Source: a virus | Lineage: Duplodnaviria; Caudoviricetes | Length of the DNA stretch: 64,000 nucleotides | Virus record (IMG/VR): IMGVR_UViG_3300037247_001786 | Location: 192,001 to 256,000 of that record | Direction: 5' to 3' (one strand) | Part shown: one piece after another, positions 4,082 through 12,468 of the stretch | How positions within the stretch are numbered: the stretch's first letter is position 1 | How the letters are laid out: each line of letters starts with the position of its first letter | Notes under the pieces: model-generated | What the model saw: the letters and a program-made list of their open reading frames with translations, nothing else | What the model was told of the DNA's origin: nothing | The model's database searches: none | Program-made: the position numbers and the translations under genes

Positions 4082-4441
4082 ATGACGAATAGAATTTTAG
4101 GTAAAATAGGGCAATTTAAAACTGCTAAAAAACAATTGAAAAATATAGATAATTTAGAAATTATTGAAATAAAATATAAATATAGCGATGTGTATGAATT
4201 TGTAATAGATTTTAATAAAAGCAGGGTAGAAACCGTAGATGAAGATATCTTAAAAGAATCAATTGAAAGAAATTTTAAAAGCATTAAGAAAGATATAAAA
4301 GCCCTTTATAAAGAAAAGATAAAAAAATTAAATGAAGAGGCTATCGAAGAGGCTTATGAGTTTCTTGACGATAAAGAAAATGGCACAAAAAATATTTCTA
4401 AAAAGAAAAAAATATGGGACTATATTGATCTGGAGAGATAG
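4082..4441 (+). CDS. Hypothetical protein with the WDxID C-terminal motif
   Basis: AAGGAAG upstream; ends KKKKIWDYIDLER. Confidence 0.7.
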   Translation: MTNRILGKIGQFKTAKKQLKNIDNLEIIEIKYKYSDVYEFVIDFNKSRVETVDEDILKESIERNFKSIKKDIKALYKEKIKKLNEEAIEEAYEFLDDKENGTKNISKKKKIWDYIDLER

Positions 4442-4810
4442 ATGAGGTTTATAAGACAAGAAGAAATTATAACAACTATTTGCAATAAAGAAATAGAAGA
4501 TAATAAAAATATAGCTTTTGTTCTTGAAAGATTAAAAGAAGAGGGAGTATATTTCGCATTAACTATAAAAAAAATGTTTAGTAGTGATTACAGAGATCGT
4601 ACAATAGCGTATGAAAAAGTTAAAGTTAAAAATGTTAATGCCGAAACAGACAAAGTTGATTTTATAGTATATAAAGGAAGCTCTCTTATTAAACTAACTA
4701 ATATGGATTTTGAAGATATCAACGAGATATTTGCATTAACTAAAAAAACTAATTTATTAGATAGTAGTCAAAATAAGGGGTTCTTTGATTATATCGATAT
4801 CGAGGAATAG
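4442..4810 (+). CDS. Hypothetical protein with the FDxID C-terminal motif
   Basis: Ends NKGFFDYIDIEE. Confidence 0.7.
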   Translation: MRFIRQEEIITTICNKEIEDNKNIAFVLERLKEEGVYFALTIKKMFSSDYRDRTIAYEKVKVKNVNAETDKVDFIVYKGSSLIKLTNMDFEDINEIFALTKKTNLLDSSQNKGFFDYIDIEE

Positions 4811-5637: not shown

Positions 5638-6273
5638 ATGGGAAGATGCGTAGGTGTGGGGACTAAGGAATGTTATAGCGTCGTTTCTTCTAATGGAGAT
5701 TTGTGCCGTTCTTGTCAATTCGATAAACTAAAAGCAGCAAACAGTCTATTAAAAGAAGCATTGGAAGAATCGGTTAGATTTCAATCTCATTATGCTAAAC
5801 TTTTAAATATGTACGACGCAGGAGAACGTATGGAATTTAAAGATGCTAATGAATGGATAGAAAGATTAGAGAAAATCGAAGGCGGTCAGATGGCGACATT
5901 AAAATATTCTGATATTAAACACGTTGGAAATGAACCGCAAAGAAAAAAATATTCTTATGAAGAAAAGATTTTTGCTGATAAATGGGAAGAGCTTAATGAT
6001 CGCAAGACAGGAACCAATGGAGGTTACGGTGCTTTAGAGTTGCTACTAGACAAGTCTGGATATGATAGCGGAAACTGGACAACCCACTTCATTCCTGTTG
6101 ATGAGATAACTGAAAGAGATGCTTTTGTCGCCGCGACTACGATTCAATGGTTAGGTACAAAATGTGGATGTGTTTTCTTGTGGGAATGTGAGCAAAAGAT
6201 AAAAGAAGAACATAAAAAAGAGATGGAAGAGTTTCATAAGAAATATAATTTACATGTAGAAGAAAATAGTTGA
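5638..6273 (+). CDS. Hypothetical phage protein
   Basis: 211 aa; GGAGG RBS; no confident family. Confidence 0.65.
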   Translation: MGRCVGVGTKECYSVVSSNGDLCRSCQFDKLKAANSLLKEALEESVRFQSHYAKLLNMYDAGERMEFKDANEWIERLEKIEGGQMATLKYSDIKHVGNEPQRKKYSYEEKIFADKWEELNDRKTGTNGGYGALELLLDKSGYDSGNWTTHFIPVDEITERDAFVAATTIQWLGTKCGCVFLWECEQKIKEEHKKEMEEFHKKYNLHVEENS

Positions 6274-6283
6274 AGGAAAAAAT

Positions 6284-7705
6284 ATGAGTTTTAGTAATAA
6301 AGATTTTGTACATTTTCACACACATTCTGACAGATCTCGTTTTGATGGATTAGCTAAATTATCTGATTTGGTACTTCAAGCTAGGAAGATGGGGTTTCCC
6401 GCTTTAGCACTTACGGATCATGGGAACGTTATGGGATATGTTCAATTCCTAAAAGACTGTAGAGCTACTTCTAATAAAAAAGGTCCAATTGAGTACGCTC
6501 CGATTAAACCTATTTTAGGCTCTGAATTTTATCTTGCTAGACAAATGAATATAGGGCAATACGAAGTTAAGAGAGATAAAGAGGGGAAAAAGCTCAAACC
6601 AAAAGATTTTCAACCAGATGGAAGAAAGGGCAATCGTCATCTTAATATATATGCTATGAACTGGGAGGGCTATAGTAATCTATGTACTCTCTCACAGCGT
6701 TCTTTTACGGAAGGTTTCTATTCTGACCCTCGTATTGATATTGAGCTGCTCTCAAAGCATTCTAAGGGTCTCATGGGAGGATCAGCTTGTTTGTCTAGTG
6801 TTATTAATGTGAACCTCTTATATGGCAATTACGATAAAGCTAAAAAGATGGCTGGGTTATTAAATGAGATTTTTGATAAAAATTTCTTCCTTGAAGTTAT
6901 GTACCATGGGATACCTGAAGAGAAGGCTATTATCCCAGATATATTTAAATTGTCTTCTGAATTAAACATCCCTATTATTGCTACGAATGATACTCATTAT
7001 ATCCTTCCAGAACATGCAGAATCTCAAGAAGTTTTAATGTGCATGAGCACAAGTAGATGCATTAAAGATCCTAAAAGGATGTCATTCTCTTATAAGGAGT
7101 TTTATCTTAAATCGGCGGAAGAGATGGCTAAAATGTTTGGAAGTACTCCTCATGTTTTGACTAATTCAGTTCTAATGGCAGACAGAGTAGATACGGCAGA
7201 TATCGAAAGAAATCTTTTCGGAGGTATGAGATTGCCTAAGTTCGCTATTCCTGATGAGTTTGAGAACTCTTTTGAATACCTTAAAAAATTATCTTGGGAA
7301 GGTTTGAAGAAGCATGGTTGGGATAAGAGTGAAAAGCATATTAAAGCACTGGAAAGAGAAATAGAAGATGTCAGAGTTGCTAAAGTTAATAATAATTATG
7401 ACTTTGCTACTTATTTTTTAATTGTTAAAGATTACCTTGATGCATCAAAAGATATGGATATATTGATTGGTAGCGGTAGAGGTTCAGGTTACGCATCCGT
7501 TATGCTGCGTTGTCTTGACATTACTTACGGTCCCGACCCACTCAAATTCGATCTTATCTGGGAAAGATTTTTAGGATTTGATGATCTGCGTTTTATAAAA
7601 GATTCAGATTTTGGTTTTGAAGAAGAAGTTAAATCTGTAGAAGTCGATGTATTAGATGTGGATAGAGATTTAGAAGATGACCAGGGTGGAGTTGATAGAT
7701 ACTAA
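6284..7705 (+). CDS. dnaE: DNA polymerase III alpha subunit, N-terminal piece (PHP domain plus start of palm)
   Basis: FVHFHTHSDRS, ALTDHG, PILGSEFY, ATNDTHY, GSGRGSG, DLIWERFL; ends in an acidic tail before the PDID motif. Confidence 0.93.
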   Translation: MSFSNKDFVHFHTHSDRSRFDGLAKLSDLVLQARKMGFPALALTDHGNVMGYVQFLKDCRATSNKKGPIEYAPIKPILGSEFYLARQMNIGQYEVKRDKEGKKLKPKDFQPDGRKGNRHLNIYAMNWEGYSNLCTLSQRSFTEGFYSDPRIDIELLSKHSKGLMGGSACLSSVINVNLLYGNYDKAKKMAGLLNEIFDKNFFLEVMYHGIPEEKAIIPDIFKLSSELNIPIIATNDTHYILPEHAESQEVLMCMSTSRCIKDPKRMSFSYKEFYLKSAEEMAKMFGSTPHVLTNSVLMADRVDTADIERNLFGGMRLPKFAIPDEFENSFEYLKKLSWEGLKKHGWDKSEKHIKALEREIEDVRVAKVNNNYDFATYFLIVKDYLDASKDMDILIGSGRGSGYASVMLRCLDITYGPDPLKFDLIWERFLGFDDLRFIKDSDFGFEEEVKSVEVDVLDVDRDLEDDQGGVDRY

Positions 7706-7720
7706 AACAGGAGAGAAGTA

Positions 7721-7936
7721 ATGATTAAATGTTGTAAGTGCGATTTAGAGACAGAGGTAAAGCCTCATAATTTTTGTTATAAAAATCAAAGAAATGTAAG
7801 CTATTATAAATGCGATGAATGTATCTTAATAGACGCTAAATGTTTGATTTTAGACGGATTAAAAAAGATAGCACATAATATATCTTTTGAAAAAATAAAA
7901 AGTATTTTAGATGATGGGATTAGCAAGGAGAGTTAA
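7721..7936 (+). CDS. Small Cys-rich hypothetical protein
   Basis: CCKC...CDEC. Confidence 0.55.
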   Translation: MIKCCKCDLETEVKPHNFCYKNQRNVSYYKCDECILIDAKCLILDGLKKIAHNISFEKIKSILDDGISKES

Positions 7937-8228
7937 TATGAGATGTAAAATTTGCAATGAGTGGGATTGGGGGGATGGACATCATAAATGTCCTCCAGTT
8001 ATGTATTTTAAACATGAAGATTGGGACGACGAATGGCAAGAGATTAGGGCTAGAGACTATGAGGAAGCAGCTTTGAAATTTGCGGAGATATATAATGATT
8101 GTGATTATGCGTTAATGAATCACGATACAGATGTTATTATATTTGATGGAGAGGAAGAGAAGGCTTTTACTGTTTCTGCTGAACCATCTATAGATTATCA
8201 TGCGACAGAAAAAGAGGTGCTAAAATGA
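7911..8228 (+). CDS. Hypothetical protein (likely start MRCKIC at about 7938)
   Basis: AAGGAG RBS before the internal ATG. Confidence 0.6.
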   Translation: MMGLARRVNMRCKICNEWDWGDGHHKCPPVMYFKHEDWDDEWQEIRARDYEEAALKFAEIYNDCDYALMNHDTDVIIFDGEEEKAFTVSAEPSIDYHATEKEVLK

Positions 8229-8353
8229 AATTTAATATTAGAGAATTTAGAAAATATTTTATGAAGAAATTTAATATAAGTGAAGAAGAGCTGAAAGAAG
8301 CTGAAAAAATGTGGAAGACGGAAGCATGTCGCAGGAGAAAGAATGGGAATTAA
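8225..8353 (+). CDS. Small hypothetical protein, 42 aa (below the ORF-track cutoff)
   Basis: ATGA overlap with the upstream stop; GAGG RBS; fills the gap between ORFs. Confidence 0.5.
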   Translation: MKFNIREFRKYFMKKFNISEEELKEAEKMWKTEACRRRKNGN

Positions 8354-8525
8354 AGATGATGTTAAAACTTTTGGCTTATTTAGTACTATTAGGTCATTTT
8401 TTAAAAAATGGGGTTATTGTGACGGTTGTAAATATTTTTCTAATTTTAAGTGCGATAAATATGGTAATGGAATGACATATGGTTGTTGTGGGTATGTAAG
8501 GGATGTAAGTCGAAGGAAAAAATAA
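8343..8525 (+). CDS. Small Cys-rich hypothetical protein
   Basis: CDGC...C...CC. Confidence 0.5.
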   Translation: MGIKDDVKTFGLFSTIRSFFKKWGYCDGCKYFSNFKCDKYGNGMTYGCCGYVRDVSRRKK

Positions 8526-8526
8526 A

Positions 8527-8697
8527 ATGGATGAGAGCGAAAAAGATAGAGCTAGTAAAAAGTCAATGATAAAATTTTTAAAGAGCATCGGCTGGACAGA
8601 AAAGGAAATTAGAGAACAGTCAAGACTCAGTGCATCTGATCAGAAAAGAAAAATTAAAAATAAGATAGCAAAATACTATGGAAGAGAAAAAGAATAA
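8527..8697 (+). CDS. Small hypothetical protein, 56 aa (below the ORF-track cutoff)
   Basis: Read from sequence: MDESEKDRAS...YYGREKE; fills the gap between ORFs. Confidence 0.45.
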   Translation: MDESEKDRASKKSMIKFLKSIGWTEKEIREQSRLSASDQKRKIKNKIAKYYGREKE

Positions 8698-8908
8698 AAA
8701 AATAAAATTTAGTACCTACTCTCCATTATACGTTAGCACCCGTGGTGAAGAAGGATACTTTTATTTAGGAGAGGGTAGAAGAATGACAAGTGAAGAATTT
8801 TTAGAGAAAACTAAAGAGTGGCATAATAATGACTATGAAGGTGAATTACACGAATTTTTACATATGACAGAAAAAGAATATGCAAAATATGTGGAGGGTA
8901 AAAAATGA
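8678..8908 (+). CDS. Hypothetical protein
   Basis: 76 aa; overlaps the next start (ATGA). Confidence 0.55.
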   Translation: MEEKKNKKIKFSTYSPLYVSTRGEEGYFYLGEGRRMTSEEFLEKTKEWHNNDYEGELHEFLHMTEKEYAKYVEGKK

Positions 8909-9489
8909 CATATTTAGAGTTTTTAAAAGAAATTATAGGTAAGGATTATGCCCAGTATAGTAAAGAAGATATAGATAAGATAGGGGCGACCAGTCATGGA
9001 CTCGACAGAGATTCTTTCAGAGATGCTTATGAGAGTTCCCATTTTCCCGGAGTAGAGATATATCATTTAGACAATCCTAAAACATTGCGTATAGGATTTG
9101 TGGTTGACTGGGGAGAACATCAAATATGGCATACTATTAGAATTCAAGCTTGGAGGGCAGGAGATAAAAGTGACCCATCATATAAGTTTGATTTTCATGA
9201 AAGTTTGCGAGAATATATTTTAAAAAAGGAAAAGAAAGAAATTCAGAATAAACCAATGACCATAAAAGAAGGGTGGTTTTGTTACGGTGCGAATTTTGAT
9301 TGTAAAGAACCTCATATCATTATTGCCGATAATGACTGTAATAAGGAAGAAAAGATATTAATACCTGAAACAGTAGCGTATTATTTAAGAACTCATTTTT
9401 GCGGATCTAATCAAATGAGAGATACTATAAGAGATAACGCTATTAGTGATATGCAATATAAATTTAAGGAATTATTAGGAATTAAATAA
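8905..9489 (+). CDS. Hypothetical protein
   Basis: 194 aa; ends LLGIK. Confidence 0.65.
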   Translation: MTYLEFLKEIIGKDYAQYSKEDIDKIGATSHGLDRDSFRDAYESSHFPGVEIYHLDNPKTLRIGFVVDWGEHQIWHTIRIQAWRAGDKSDPSYKFDFHESLREYILKKEKKEIQNKPMTIKEGWFCYGANFDCKEPHIIIADNDCNKEEKILIPETVAYYLRTHFCGSNQMRDTIRDNAISDMQYKFKELLGIK

Positions 9490-9507
9490 TGCCAGATGTG
9501 AAACAGA
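9475..9507 (+). repeat. 33-bp direct repeat, copy 1
   Basis: ttaggaattaaataatgccagatgtgaaacaga; 32/33 identical to 10114-10146. Confidence 0.9.
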
Positions 9508-9510
9508 AAA

Positions 9511-10128
9511 TTGGGAGTAATTATGAATATTTTAGATGTTAAGTATGATAATTTTGTAGATAGTTTATTTGTAAACACAGATGAATATGAGAGTAAAACT
9601 TTTAATAAAGTTAAAGATTTTAAAAAGAAATATATTGAGTCTTTAAAAAATAACTATTGTGTTATTAGAAGTGACGACCCCTTAAAAAAACAAGTTGGTT
9701 TTAAGGTTATCAATAAGGGGGAGGTAAAAAAATATTTAATTTCAATGAGAAAGATTGTAGAACATCTTCATCTTAAAGAAATAGATGAAAAAGAACTTGC
9801 TCTGTCTTTTGTTAAAAATTATTATAAAAGGATTCTCGATATCCCAGATAACGAAGATGAAATCGTAGATGTTAGATATGAGATTAAAGATAAAATGATA
9901 CTGATTCTTTTTGTAATGTCCGAGGGGTCTGTCTCTTCATTTTTGGAAGATGATTGTAATGTACTTCCTTTATATTTCACTACGATTGATGGTTTAGATG
10001 GTTGGAGTTATTCTATATGCTATTTAAGACAGAATGAATTGGAAGTAGCAGATTTTAGTGAGAGTTGGGGCAGTATAAAAGATTTTATTTCGGAAAAAAT
10101 TATAGATGATGATTTAGGAATTAAATAA
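9511..10128 (+). CDS. Hypothetical protein bracketed by 33-bp direct repeats
   Basis: 205 aa; ends DLGIK, like the upstream ORF. Confidence 0.65.
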   Translation: MGVIMNILDVKYDNFVDSLFVNTDEYESKTFNKVKDFKKKYIESLKNNYCVIRSDDPLKKQVGFKVINKGEVKKYLISMRKIVEHLHLKEIDEKELALSFVKNYYKRILDIPDNEDEIVDVRYEIKDKMILILFVMSEGSVSSFLEDDCNVLPLYFTTIDGLDGWSYSICYLRQNELEVADFSESWGSIKDFISEKIIDDDLGIK

Positions 10129-10146
10129 TGCCAGATGTAAAACAGA
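10114..10146 (+). repeat. 33-bp direct repeat, copy 2 (contains the dnaE-C start)
   Basis: ttaggaattaaataatgccagatgtaaaacaga. Confidence 0.9.
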
Positions 10147-12089
10147 TTAGAAAAGAAATAACCGATGCTATAAAAAAGAAGCGTGGCGATAAGATTTCAG
10201 AAGATCTTTGGAAAGCTATCGAAACAGAACTAGATATCTGCGAGATAACTGATGGATTGGGAGGTAAGAATAATCTTCAAACTTTTTATAATATATGGCA
10301 AAAAAGAAAAGATAAAGTCGGAAATAAGAATGAGATAAATAGTTGGATAGCTTACTCTTTAGGTTTCACAAGTAAAAAACCAGATGGCGAATTCTTATTT
10401 AAAAGAAGAGCTTTCGCTAGAGCAGGCTTCCCAGATATAGATGTAGACTTCGAAGATAGCCGTCAGAACGATGTTTTCGAATACTTGGTAGATACTTACG
10501 GGAGAGATAAGGGCGGCAGGATAGGCACACATCAGTTCTTAACATTTAAATCATGCATCACAAGAGTTGTTAAGGCTTTAGATATAGCCGACGCATTTCA
10601 TAAAGGTAAAGATGTTATGACCACCGAAAATGCGAAAAAGGTTTCAGAAATATTAGAGTCGTTTCCTAAAGGTGGAGTTATCCGTCTTAGAGGCGACGAT
10701 GGAGAGATGCATCTTATTAAAACTATCAAAGATGCATATGAGCATAGCCCAGATTTTAAGCATTATATGGATAAGTATCCTTTACTTAAAAAGCATAGCT
10801 TTGAGGTAGAAAAAACTTTTTCAGCATTCGGATCCCATGCGGCCGGTTATGTGATATCGGATATACCTATCGAGAAGATTGCTCCTTTAAGAAGAGCAAC
10901 AGGAGATGCCTTATGCACTCAATTTACAGGACCAGAATTAGAGAGTTTGGGGCTGATAAAGTTTGATATTTTAGGTTTATCTACTTTAAGTGTTATTAAA
11001 AAATGTTTAGAGCTAATAAAAGAAAATTATGATATAGATATTGATATCGCCAATTTGTCTTTAACTGATGAACCAACTTTTAAATTATATAGAACTGGTA
11101 ATTTGGGAGGAGTATTTCAGTGTGAGCAATCAGGAATGCAACATACCATGAGAGAGATTGGAGTCGATAGATTTGAAGATATAATGGCTGGAGTTGCTTT
11201 ATACAGACCTGGACCTATGGATAATATTCCAGATTATTGTGCCAGAAAAAAGGGTGAGCAACAGATAGACTACTTCCATCCTTCTATTGAGCCTTTTGTT
11301 AAGAAGCATCTTGAAAAAACATACGGCATTCTAGTCTATCAAGAACAGATTATGAATATATGTAGTTCTTTAGCTGGTTTCTCTATCACAGATGGTTACA
11401 TAATGATTAAAGCTATTGGCAAGAAAAAAATAGAACTTATGAAGAAATTCGAGAACCAATTTATTGAGGGAGCTATGAATAACGGAGTTCCTAAAGAGGT
11501 CATCGAACAGTATTGGTCTAAATTTATAGTTCCATTCTCTAATTATGGTTTTAATGCTGCACATGCATGTTGCTATGGTTTTAACAGTTACATCACAGCA
11601 TATCTTAAAGCTAATTATCCAGATGAATTTATTTGTGCTACTCTTATTACGGAAACCAAAAAGAATTCTGGAACTAAGTTTGAGAAGCTGTCTGGTTTTG
11701 AAAGGGAATTTAAAAAGAAATTAGCTGTTAAATTTTTGTCAAGAAATATTAATGACTGTAAATTAGATTATGTTATAGAGAAGAAGAAAGATCTTCAAAA
11801 TGGAGTTATGGTTTCAGAGATAAGACCTTCTTTAATTTGTAAGGGTTTGGGATGGGTTGCTGCTAAGGAAATAGAGAAAAATCAACCTTTTGAGAATTTA
11901 AAGGATTTCGCGGAAAAAAATGGATCATCTGTTGACACTAAAGCGGTATTAGCTTTAGTCGTAGCAGGCTATTTCGGAGCAAAGCCCAAGAAAAATTCAG
12001 AAGCATTCGTAAGGCAATTTGCAATCATTAAAGAAGATATTAAAAAAGTTCGTAAAAAAGGAATTGAATCTGTAGATATATTTGGATAG
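10128..12089 (+). CDS. dnaE: DNA polymerase III alpha subunit, C-terminal piece (palm, thumb, fingers, HhH)
   Basis: FPDIDVDF, GSHAAG, LIKFDILGLSTL, GVFQCE, ALYRPGPM, TYGILVYQEQIM, YGFNAAHA, YLKANYP. Confidence 0.95.
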   Translation: MPDVKQIRKEITDAIKKKRGDKISEDLWKAIETELDICEITDGLGGKNNLQTFYNIWQKRKDKVGNKNEINSWIAYSLGFTSKKPDGEFLFKRRAFARAGFPDIDVDFEDSRQNDVFEYLVDTYGRDKGGRIGTHQFLTFKSCITRVVKALDIADAFHKGKDVMTTENAKKVSEILESFPKGGVIRLRGDDGEMHLIKTIKDAYEHSPDFKHYMDKYPLLKKHSFEVEKTFSAFGSHAAGYVISDIPIEKIAPLRRATGDALCTQFTGPELESLGLIKFDILGLSTLSVIKKCLELIKENYDIDIDIANLSLTDEPTFKLYRTGNLGGVFQCEQSGMQHTMREIGVDRFEDIMAGVALYRPGPMDNIPDYCARKKGEQQIDYFHPSIEPFVKKHLEKTYGILVYQEQIMNICSSLAGFSITDGYIMIKAIGKKKIELMKKFENQFIEGAMNNGVPKEVIEQYWSKFIVPFSNYGFNAAHACCYGFNSYITAYLKANYPDEFICATLITETKKNSGTKFEKLSGFEREFKKKLAVKFLSRNINDCKLDYVIEKKKDLQNGVMVSEIRPSLICKGLGWVAAKEIEKNQPFENLKDFAEKNGSSVDTKAVLALVVAGYFGAKPKKNSEAFVRQFAIIKEDIKKVRKKGIESVDIFG

Positions 12090-12110
12090 TGATTCAATTT
12101 ATGTTAGTAT
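12088..12110 (+). promoter_or_regulatory. Putative promoter, AGTGA-N12-TAGTAT
   Basis: 12086-12111 is 24/26 identical to 13815-13840; followed by an AAGGAG RBS. Confidence 0.65.
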
Positions 12111-12135
12111 TTAAAAAAGTTAAAAGGAGTATAAG

Positions 12136-12468
12136 ATGAAGAAATCAATTATTAAAAAATCAATTACGAGAAAAATTAGTACAGCTCCATACGAGACCCT
12201 TGATGTTCATGTAGAAATACAAGAAGAGATAGAATGGGAGAATATGCAGCAGAGAATTGAAAAAGCCGATTCGGTGTCAAAAATCCTCATTTTAGATTTT
12301 GTAAAGACATTAAATCAAGTAGCGGCTGAGTTGCACGTAGATAAAAAAATAGCATCTATTTCTGGCAAAAAAAATCCTCAAGAAGCTCAAGAAAAACCAG
12401 TGGATACGTCGATAAATAATAGTAAAGATGGTGATGTCGCTGGTGCTGATTTTGACTTTTTAAGCTGA
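12136..12468 (+). CDS. Hypothetical protein
   Basis: AAGGAG RBS; acidic-aromatic tail ADFDFLS. Confidence 0.7.
   Translation: MKKSIIKKSITRKISTAPYETLDVHVEIQEEIEWENMQQRIEKADSVSKILILDFVKTLNQVAAELHVDKKIASISGKKNPQEAQEKPVDTSINNSKDGDVAGADFDFLS

Follow-up and report, generated by a model that had tools for sequence, protein, structure and literature searches.

Replicative polymerases of the C family have been treated as single catalytic chains, the exceptions being the intein-split DnaE of cyanobacteria and a minimal split core predicted in certain jumbo phages. The cyanobacterial halves carry Hint fragments and are ligated by protein trans-splicing; the first half ends at about residue 774, well away from the palm. 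In group 2.2 (T4-like) jumbo phages, a split 'minimal' Pol III alpha was described as two proteins with no intein, in which the cut falls between the nucleotide (NTP)-binding and the Mg2+/template-binding subdomains and for which reconstitution was predicted; in group 3.2 jumbo phages the Pol III alpha was reported to be of the ordinary kind, with PHP at its N terminus, and no split was mentioned (Iyer, Anantharaman, Krishnan, Burroughs, Aravind 2021, PMC7824862). Two-piece replication enzymes that work are also described in a review (PMC2988022): in Aeromonas phages 25 and 44RR the family B polymerase is split into gp43A and gp43B, which co-purify and are active, and the split NrdA of phage Aeh1 is fully functional. 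Here we describe a DnaE divided between two genes, dnaE-N and dnaE-C, in a stretch of 64,000 nucleotides (the window) that represents bases 192001-256000 of the 460,978-bp IMG/VR virus record IMGVR_UViG_3300037247_001786, from an uncultured phage. The record has direct terminal repeats and is rated complete; the window has a G+C content of about 33%, and its long open reading frames (ORFs) lie nearly all on the plus strand. The best reading of the sequence comparisons and structure models is that the locus encodes a DnaE of two subunits which is conserved, needs no intein and has kept overlap elements at the break.

The domains of a DnaE-type polymerase were found in two ORFs 2.4 kb apart (Table 1), so that no single polypeptide holds them, and the same arrangement was seen in more than 100 relatives. 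The features that mark a C-family palm, namely the GS loop and three catalytic aspartates, are all present but are spread over two chains, and the PHP, fingers and HhH domains of the DnaE type (Pol III alpha) were also detected, the HhH match falling just below its cut-off. In phmmer searches against solved structures, DnaE-N aligned to the DnaE proteins of Taq, Mycobacterium tuberculosis (Mtb) and E. coli. The initial annotation had placed the stop of DnaE-N about 44 codons past ERFL, and we counted 43 codons between that motif and the TAA; the acidic end that it described corresponds to the last 28 residues, and the PDIDxDF motif that it located at 10431 in a separate ORF is indeed there as PDIDVDF. 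The conserved motifs of the two pieces are complementary. GSGRGS and ERFL are invariant only in DnaE-N, where G398, R399, G400, S401 and G402 do not vary among 31 paired relatives, and D103, D105, K278 and D280 are invariant only in DnaE-C, in whose relatives P102, D103, D105, D107 and F108 are likewise fixed. When the complete 461-kb genome was scanned with Pfam, PF07733 was matched only twice, by dnaE-N and dnaE-C, and neither PolA nor PolB (PF00136) gave a match; the split DnaE is the only replicative polymerase found in this genome. From these sequence features and the models described below, the two ORFs probably specify a single replicative polymerase of the C family (DnaE type), a heterodimer whose two subunits would never be covalently joined.

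The split is widely conserved. A search with the N piece, restricted to proteins of 260-828 residues, returned 539 matches at E values up to 1e-10; the best 120 N clusters were 421-494 residues long and 54-86% identical to the query, nearly all over 90-100% of its length, and derived from contigs of up to 472 kb. About 96 clusters of 630-690 residues were present among the best 120 matches to the C piece, and the split family was found on contigs of up to 505 kb. The loci, which were read in entries from ENA, NCBI, JGI and IMG/VR, share a syntenic module consisting of DnaB, a DnaG zinc ribbon, a methyltransferase, small genes, dnaE-N, a gap, dnaE-C, three conserved genes, RecA and Toprim. The gap in the relatives is an overlapping stop and start (TAGTG, locus L013), a spacer of about 0.1-0.7 kb, or an interval of 1.6-2.9 kb, and its contents are unrelated. 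A survey of homologs for the same breakpoint had been suggested at the outset, and the breakpoint recurs in at least 120 N clusters and about 96 C clusters from independent assemblies, far more often than chance would allow. This recurrence, together with the synteny and the variable gaps, rules out recent decay as well as misassembly, which the initial annotation had named as a danger to its reading. Megablast of positions 6284-12089 against 50,697 phage records gave zero matches.

We also considered whether the gap is removed from the RNA as an intron with ORF cargo, or whether the locus is a pseudogene or an assembly error. We found nothing positive for an intron, although a size of 2.4 kb and the presence of internal ORFs could recall intron-encoded genes. 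No match, and hence no intron RNA, was detected in an Rfam search of positions 6000-12300 at E up to 1; the gap is filled by eight separate ORFs, the number originally annotated, all on the same strand (7721-10128); and the gaps of the relatives vary from 0 to 2.9 kb with unrelated content. The motif LEDDxGGVDRY directly precedes the stop codon in most of the 120 N relatives, being absent from a subset of about 445 residues and from the fused forms described below. Conservation of the tail up to the stop codon argues that DnaE-N is translated to its own end and that selection acts on a protein ending there. The catalytic residues, moreover, are invariant across more than 100 independent assemblies. 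We regard an intron, a pseudogene or an assembly error as highly improbable.

Given that both pieces cover Taq residues 425-471, the break is not a clean cut. In the phmmer alignments to solved structures, DnaE-N residues 370-446 correspond to Taq DnaE 395-471, with GSGRGS intact and KDSDFGF at the position of PDIDTDF, and DnaE-C residues 67-153 correspond to Taq 425-513, with GNKNEINS at the position of GRGSAAGS and PDIDVDF intact. About 47 canonical residues are represented twice (N 400-446 and C 67-109), so that DnaE-N keeps a degenerate D-x-D strand and DnaE-C a degenerate post-GRGS segment, the latter belonging to an N-terminal domain that we call the relic (residues 1-96). The last third of the relic is clearly DnaE-like in the alignment to Taq; the similarity of its residues 1-64 to the palm segment is co-linear yet non-significant. 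BLAST aligned the tail of DnaE-N onto the true catalytic strand of canonical-like relatives, and when the N and C pieces were compared by tblastn with a DnaE gene of a gut phage that is not split, their matched regions overlapped by about 300 nt. Both extra elements are conserved. In KDSDFGF, D442 is invariant and F443 and G444 are conserved, while position 440 is D, E, A or K among relatives. In the relic, E34, N68, N71, P85, F89, R93 and R94 are invariant in 36 sequences, and the mean column conservation of residues 31-95 is 0.59-0.70, compared with 0.61-0.76 for the catalytic domains; by this measure the relic is not decaying but is conserved like the catalytic domains, under purifying selection. 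An overlapping duplication is the likely origin of the segment adjoining the cut, judging from the alignments, and a plausible origin, judging from the models, of the rest of the relic (residues 1-64). The initial annotation had proposed that the active site is assembled non-covalently, with GRGS on one chain and the catalytic aspartates on the other; our results support this, but the proposal was incomplete, as the conserved elements that overlap at the break had gone unnoticed.

Close relatives of the split genes occur in three architectures: split, fused with both extra elements, and canonical-like without either. The fused form (1089-1106 residues) consists of the N part up to DFGF, a short linker and the whole C part including the relic, and the GGVDRY tail is gone; examples are P0155, P0191 and P0215, plus P0256 and P0266 from an exhaustive search, and one was verified on its contig. 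In the canonical-like form (991-998 residues), ERFL[GA]F is followed by 4-6 residues and then by GKRxFARAGFPDID, and the pseudo-strand, the tail and the relic are all lacking; P0190 is an example, and the IMG/VR loci L020 and L023 have the same form. The existence of natural single-chain relatives argues that the two halves belong to one enzyme.

A further way of joining the halves would be an atypically split intein, with a short N-intein in the tail of DnaE-N and a long C-intein in residues 1-96 of DnaE-C. The N tail of 28-45 residues and the C domain of about 96 residues loosely recall atypically split inteins in size, and ordinary inteins do occur in related C pieces (PF14890 and PF14528 in P0125, P0128, P0205 and others). 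However, a Pfam scan with an E limit of 0.01 gave no Hint or intein match for DnaE-N or DnaE-C, in agreement with the earlier observation that intein hallmarks are lacking, although precomputed domains from the same library mark inteins in related C pieces, so that the library can recognise inteins in this family. The sequence leading into PDID reads RAFARAGF-PDID and has no His-Asn with a Cys, Ser or Thr after it, and the residue after DFGF is acidic rather than a conserved Cys or Ser. In addition, the fused relatives retain the relic within their chain, some split N pieces have no tail at all, and the relic is modelled as all-helical, unlike the beta-rich Hint fold. A split intein has, in our judgment, scarcely any likelihood.

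We examined structure models of DnaE-C alone, of a fused relative and of the two chains together. DnaE-C folded alone with a predicted local distance difference test (pLDDT) score of 82.8; the relic formed confident helices (pLDDT 80-89), and residues 92-109, including the catalytic strand, scored below 50. The model matched solved DnaE structures (3E0D, 2HNH and 7PU7) with Z scores of 25-26.6 and a root-mean-square deviation of 5-7 Å over 489-511 aligned residues, and the alignment began at residues 37-41, which correspond to Taq 380-383, E. coli 317-325 and Mtb 341. In the model the relic thus takes the fold and the place of the palm segment, which is present in DnaE-N as well. The fused relative P0191 was modelled with a pLDDT of 90.9 and a predicted template modelling (pTM) score of 0.85, with a low-confidence linker at 434-444; its strands include FQNSK (421-425), which is the equivalent of the FDDLR stretch of DnaE-N, DRRVF (532-536) and DMDFD (545-549).

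The two-chain prediction that the initial annotation had called for was run with DnaE-N 1-473 and with residues 1-520 of the 653 of DnaE-C, and gave an interface score (ipSAE) of 0.89, compared with 0.00 for the best of three controls; this mark was reached by 58 of 80 solved complexes and by 2 of 110 mismatched pairs. The runs shared at least 92% of contacts, and the pLDDT of the partner was at least 83. The modelled interface includes N 393-404 (the GRGS loop), N 427-445, C 37-98 (in the relic) and C 101-109 (the catalytic strand), with low-error pairs at C92-N436 (expected error 0.8 Å) and C69-N442, and the N tail (446-473) made no confident contact with C 1-520. We read the modelled interface as an intermolecular two-stranded sheet at the break together with the N68-N71 loop of the relic lying on the pseudo-strand of DnaE-N. 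A short turn connects these two strands in the canonical-like relatives, indicating that the cut lies at the tip of a hairpin.

These models bear on whether DnaE-C could be self-sufficient, with the relic serving as its palm half, and DnaE-N a separate PHP exonuclease or phosphatase with a vestigial palm. The superposition of relic residues 37-100 on the palm segment of solved DnaE in the C-alone model, the purifying selection on the relic, and the invariance of all nine presumed PHP ligands in DnaE-N would fit such an arrangement. On the other hand, the relic has GNKNEINS in place of GRGS, whereas DnaE-N keeps GSGRGS and ERFL invariant; canonical-like relatives drop the relic and retain the palm segment of DnaE-N; the catalytic strand is disordered without DnaE-N in the C-alone model; and the complex model sets the GRGS loop of DnaE-N against C 101-109, although this may reflect memory of solved structures. 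We consider a self-sufficient DnaE-C unlikely, and a single heterodimeric enzyme remains the reading that we prefer.

To order the three architectures, a tree was built on DnaE-C residues 98-653, with the columns of the extra elements themselves left out, from 48 split, 3 fused, 5 canonical-like and 3 outgroup rows; intein-bearing hits, fragmentary hits and every second split form were omitted. Fused and canonical-like forms were nested inside the split clade, each adjoining split forms. In a tree of the PHP region, P0191, P0211 and the P0187 group again stood beside these neighbours, though support was weaker. The approximately unbiased (AU) test rejected the canonical-like forms as one clade (p = 8e-6) and also rejected the placement of all extra-bearing forms on one side of a branch (p = 2.6e-23). 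The simplest reading of the trees is that the split form with its extra elements is ancestral to the clade and that several re-fusions took place, in which the extras were either kept or lost; a fused ancestor that split repeatedly would be less parsimonious. Recombination as the source of the nested fused forms was considered and is unlikely, as the N-part and C-part trees give the same neighbours.

Several results weigh against the duplication origin and the two-chain assembly. The sequence statistics do not show that the relic is a copy of the palm segment: an hhalign comparison between N 331-473 and C 1-112 was not significant (E = 0.16 over 19 columns); when ten relics alone were compared with Pfam, only one reached PF07733 (E = 0.0086); a local hidden Markov model (HMM) of the relic scored 4 bits against canonical DnaE proteins, in a co-linear alignment; and the relic profile, searched against 1.84 billion representatives, gave 68 hits, all of them relic-bearing pieces, with no canonical palm. 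The relic occupies in the C-alone model the place expected for the palm segment of DnaE-N, so that its position in the heterodimer rests on one model. The high score of the complex may be a memory of solved single-chain DnaE structures, in which case it shows likeness and not binding. Finally, the groups compared in the AU tests were named after the tree had been seen.

On balance, we propose the following assembly. DnaE-N would provide the proofreader (PHP) and that part of the palm which binds the nucleotide (GSGRGS and ERFL), and DnaE-C would provide the metal-binding D103, D105 and D280 together with the thumb, fingers and HhH. The break would lie between ERFL and PDID, where a beta-hairpin has its tip, with a conserved extra element on each side. 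KDSDFGF of DnaE-N and the 96-residue relic of DnaE-C would pack together across the subunit boundary and help to hold the chains, and the overlap elements thus probably aid docking. The arrangement could have arisen when a stretch of about 50-100 codons was duplicated as an overlap and its two copies then lost complementary motifs. The space between the genes has since become a landing site for unrelated small genes, the repeat-flanked insertion described below being a fresh example. A more speculative version, to which we give somewhat less than an even chance, is that the disabled D-x-D strand of DnaE-N and the disabled GRGS domain of DnaE-C serve as a docking device by forming a second, dead active-site fold across the subunit boundary, just as the live GRGS loop of DnaE-N and the live D-x-D strand of DnaE-C would form the working one, so that the chains would be interlocked twice. 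If true, this would represent a general intein-free route to a split enzyme, in which an overlap is duplicated, the copies decay in complementary fashion and the remnants are kept as glue, and one that nature would have reversed several times by joint deletion of both remnants. The family offers a natural two-piece replicase in which split forms, fused forms with the extras and fused forms without them are ready-made controls for the question of assembly, and its design could guide the engineering of intein-free split polymerases. The gap further shows that new phage genes can settle stably at the point where an essential gene is broken.

Table 1. Features of the dnaE-N/dnaE-C locus (positions in the window; residue numbers refer to the respective protein)
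Feature	Position	Strand	Remarks
dnaE-N ORF, 473 residues	6284-7705	+	PHP at residues 10-208; PF07733 positions 1-111 of 260 at residues 331-448
PHP domain	6311-6907	+	PF02811, E = 1.9e-39
GSGRGS loop, residues 396-401	7469-7486	+	triphosphate-binding GS motif of the palm; aligns to Taq GPGRGS
ERFL motif, residues 427-430	7562-7573	+	R428, F429 and L430 invariant
Strand FDDLR, residues 432-436	7577-7591	+	modelled pairing with DnaE-C residues 89-94
KDSDFGF, residues 439-445	7598-7618	+	disabled copy of the PDIDxDF catalytic strand; aligns to the Taq D-x-D strand
Acidic linker, C-terminal LEDDxGGVDRY and stop	7619-7705	+	conserved tail motif; TAA at 7703-7705
Gap, 2.4 kb, eight small ORFs	7706-10127	+	ORF starts at 7721, 7911, 8225, 8343, 8527, 8678, 8905 and 9511/9523
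One-gene cassette, 639-bp period	9475-10146	+	33-nt direct repeats at 9475-9507 and 10114-10146, 32/33 identical
dnaE-C ORF, 653 residues	10128-12089	+	extra N-terminal domain, palm, thumb, fingers, HhH; PF07733, PF17657, PF14579
Relic, N-terminal helical domain, residues 1-96	10128-10415	+	GNKNEINSW where GRGSxxGSL is expected
PDIDVDF, residues 102-108	10431-10451	+	catalytic Asp pair; aligns to Taq PDIDTDF
K278-F-D280	10959-10967	+	palm Lys and third catalytic Asp; K278 and D280 invariant; aligns to Taq GLLKMDFLGL
Fingers domain, residues 286-453	10983-11486	+	PF17657, E = 4.3e-52
HhH domain, residues 534-618	11727-11981	+	weak: PF14579, 23.7 bits against a cut-off of 25.6
C-terminal tail ESVDIFG	12066-12086	+	G645 invariant, F652 nearly invariant; family consensus DIF[GA]

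The remaining parts of the two proteins were examined in the same alignments. In the N pieces of the 31 paired relatives, H12, H14, D21, H46, E81, H119, C169, D236 and H238 are invariant, and we take these nine residues to be the metal ligands of active PHP exonucleases; their conservation suggests that the PHP domain of DnaE-N is probably a proofreading exonuclease. Acidic, aromatic-ended tails of replisome proteins bind partners, and the LEDDxGGVDRY tail resembles these. In DnaE-C, PF14579 (HhH) is recorded for most relatives. No match to beta-binding, OB or tau-binding parts was found, the C piece ending after the HhH region. The ESVDIFG end of DnaE-C recalls the C-terminal clamp-binding tails of phage polymerases; a search of the genome for a sliding clamp with the Pfam models for DnaN and gp45 gave no match. 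Short tails that resemble one another (WDYIDLER, FFDYIDIEE, RFEILDI, KFDILDI and FEVIDLD) were seen on many unrelated small proteins, encoded at 4082-4810 of the window, 9431-12316 of L005, 7392-7859 of L007, and 3-542 and 883-1296 of L004; in L005 a tail of this kind is present on nearly every gene of the dnaE gap.

The gap genes are variable cargo and not part of the enzyme. Pfam and PHROG scans of the eight ORFs gave no informative family; the gap genes of the window are unrelated to those of L005, L006 and L007, and only two are common to L004. L006 and L007 have one gap ORF each, and these are related neither to each other nor to the ORFs of the window. The idea of a conserved third subunit encoded in the gap was dropped, given that the gap genes have no informative family and are unrelated between lineages. 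The idea of a resident homing endonuclease was likewise dropped, as neither the eight gap ORFs of the window nor those of L006 and L007 matched an HNH, GIY-YIG or LAGLIDADG family; an ancient endonuclease, since lost, may have been present. Immediately upstream of dnaE-C, a one-gene cassette is flanked by direct repeats, and the repeat duplicates the junction between LGIK-stop and the ATG of dnaE-C, the first copy starting a decoy ORF of 17 codons. Genes still enter just upstream of dnaE-C, and its TAATG start overlap is kept. A scan for promoters and terminators gave sites no more numerous than in shuffled sequence.

Upstream of dnaE-N, the window has an immediately adjacent Cys-rich ORF (5638-6273). 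Cys-rich ORFs also lie directly upstream of dnaE-N and overlap its start in L004 (1736-2467) and L012 (4839-6020), and the ORF of the window is unrelated to them; the L004 ORF has CapR-like/Zn-ribbon matches and, by eye, an HNH-like motif, and the CapR match of the L012 ORF is faint. In the replication module of L012, a TnpB/IS605 OrfB-type gene occupies 727-1971, and the dnaE of this relative is canonical-like. The primase is also divided into two genes in this clade, with the DnaG zinc-ribbon gene beside DnaB and the Toprim gene about 10 kb downstream, after RecA (L006, 1724-2338 and 13185-13320; L009, 1428-2108 and 13399-14133; L013, 3028-3660 and 13509-14201). Several related C pieces contain ordinary inteins (PF14890, PF14528, PF05204 and PF01079) or other insertions elsewhere in the gene (P0125, P0128, P0150, P0160, P0168, P0186, P0205, P0234 and P0239; L022, L023 and L026). 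In the IMG/VR locus L018 (6388-8862), the N piece is interrupted by about 1.1 kb in the same frame between residues 79 and 81, and the interruption may be an intein inside the PHP domain. In the phage collection, about 300 Pseudomonas phage records match the C piece and not the N piece, which suggests that these phages have DnaE-like polymerases without a PHP domain.

We found no description of a PHP-bearing split DnaE family in the searchable literature. In this clade of very large phages, a DnaE that is complete with its proofreader is divided at a point that separates the loop binding the nucleotide from the strand binding the metal. It resembles the split enzyme of group 2.2 jumbo phages (PMC7824862), as far as that paper's text alone allows the comparison, in that the cut between GSGRGS/ERFL and PDIDVDF lies at about the same place. 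Unlike that minimal enzyme, which has no PHP or other domains, it has the full DnaE architecture with PHP, fingers and HhH; unlike it also, it does not accompany a family B polymerase as the main replicase, PF00136 having no match in the complete genome; and the two genes, which lie far apart in group 2.2, are separated by only 0-2.9 kb within the replication module. A conserved extra element on each piece at the cut distinguishes the present family from the group 2.2 version.

Like the split DnaE of cyanobacteria (PMC3919608), the enzyme is encoded by two separate dnaE genes, but no Hint domain was found, the GS loop is what the cut separates from the D-x-D strand, and the halves are not expected to be ligated. 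As with gp43A/gp43B and the split NrdA, a phage replication enzyme is divided into two genes by inserted DNA, and the halves of those proteins reassemble non-covalently; they have unrelated folds, and the passage on them in PMC2988022 ties their splits to homing endonuclease genes or an untranslated spacer and does not mention overlapping degenerate copies, whereas no endonuclease gene was found in the gap here. The best sequence and fold matches of both pieces are single-chain DnaE proteins with an active PHP domain, those of Taq (2HPI and 3E0D) and M. tuberculosis (5LEW and 7PU7), with which the present enzyme shares the order PHP, palm, thumb, fingers and HhH and all of the catalytic motifs; in these single chains ERFL and PDID are spaced by 7 residues, whereas here they lie on two chains with extra elements. 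A parallel for the proposed origin is the 'monkey king' gene of Drosophila, which reportedly underwent fission through a duplicated stretch whose copies lose complementary parts. In 'monkey king' whole-gene copies in an animal genome are involved, whereas the duplication proposed here would cover only about 50-100 codons at the cut in an essential phage enzyme, and both remnants are conserved.

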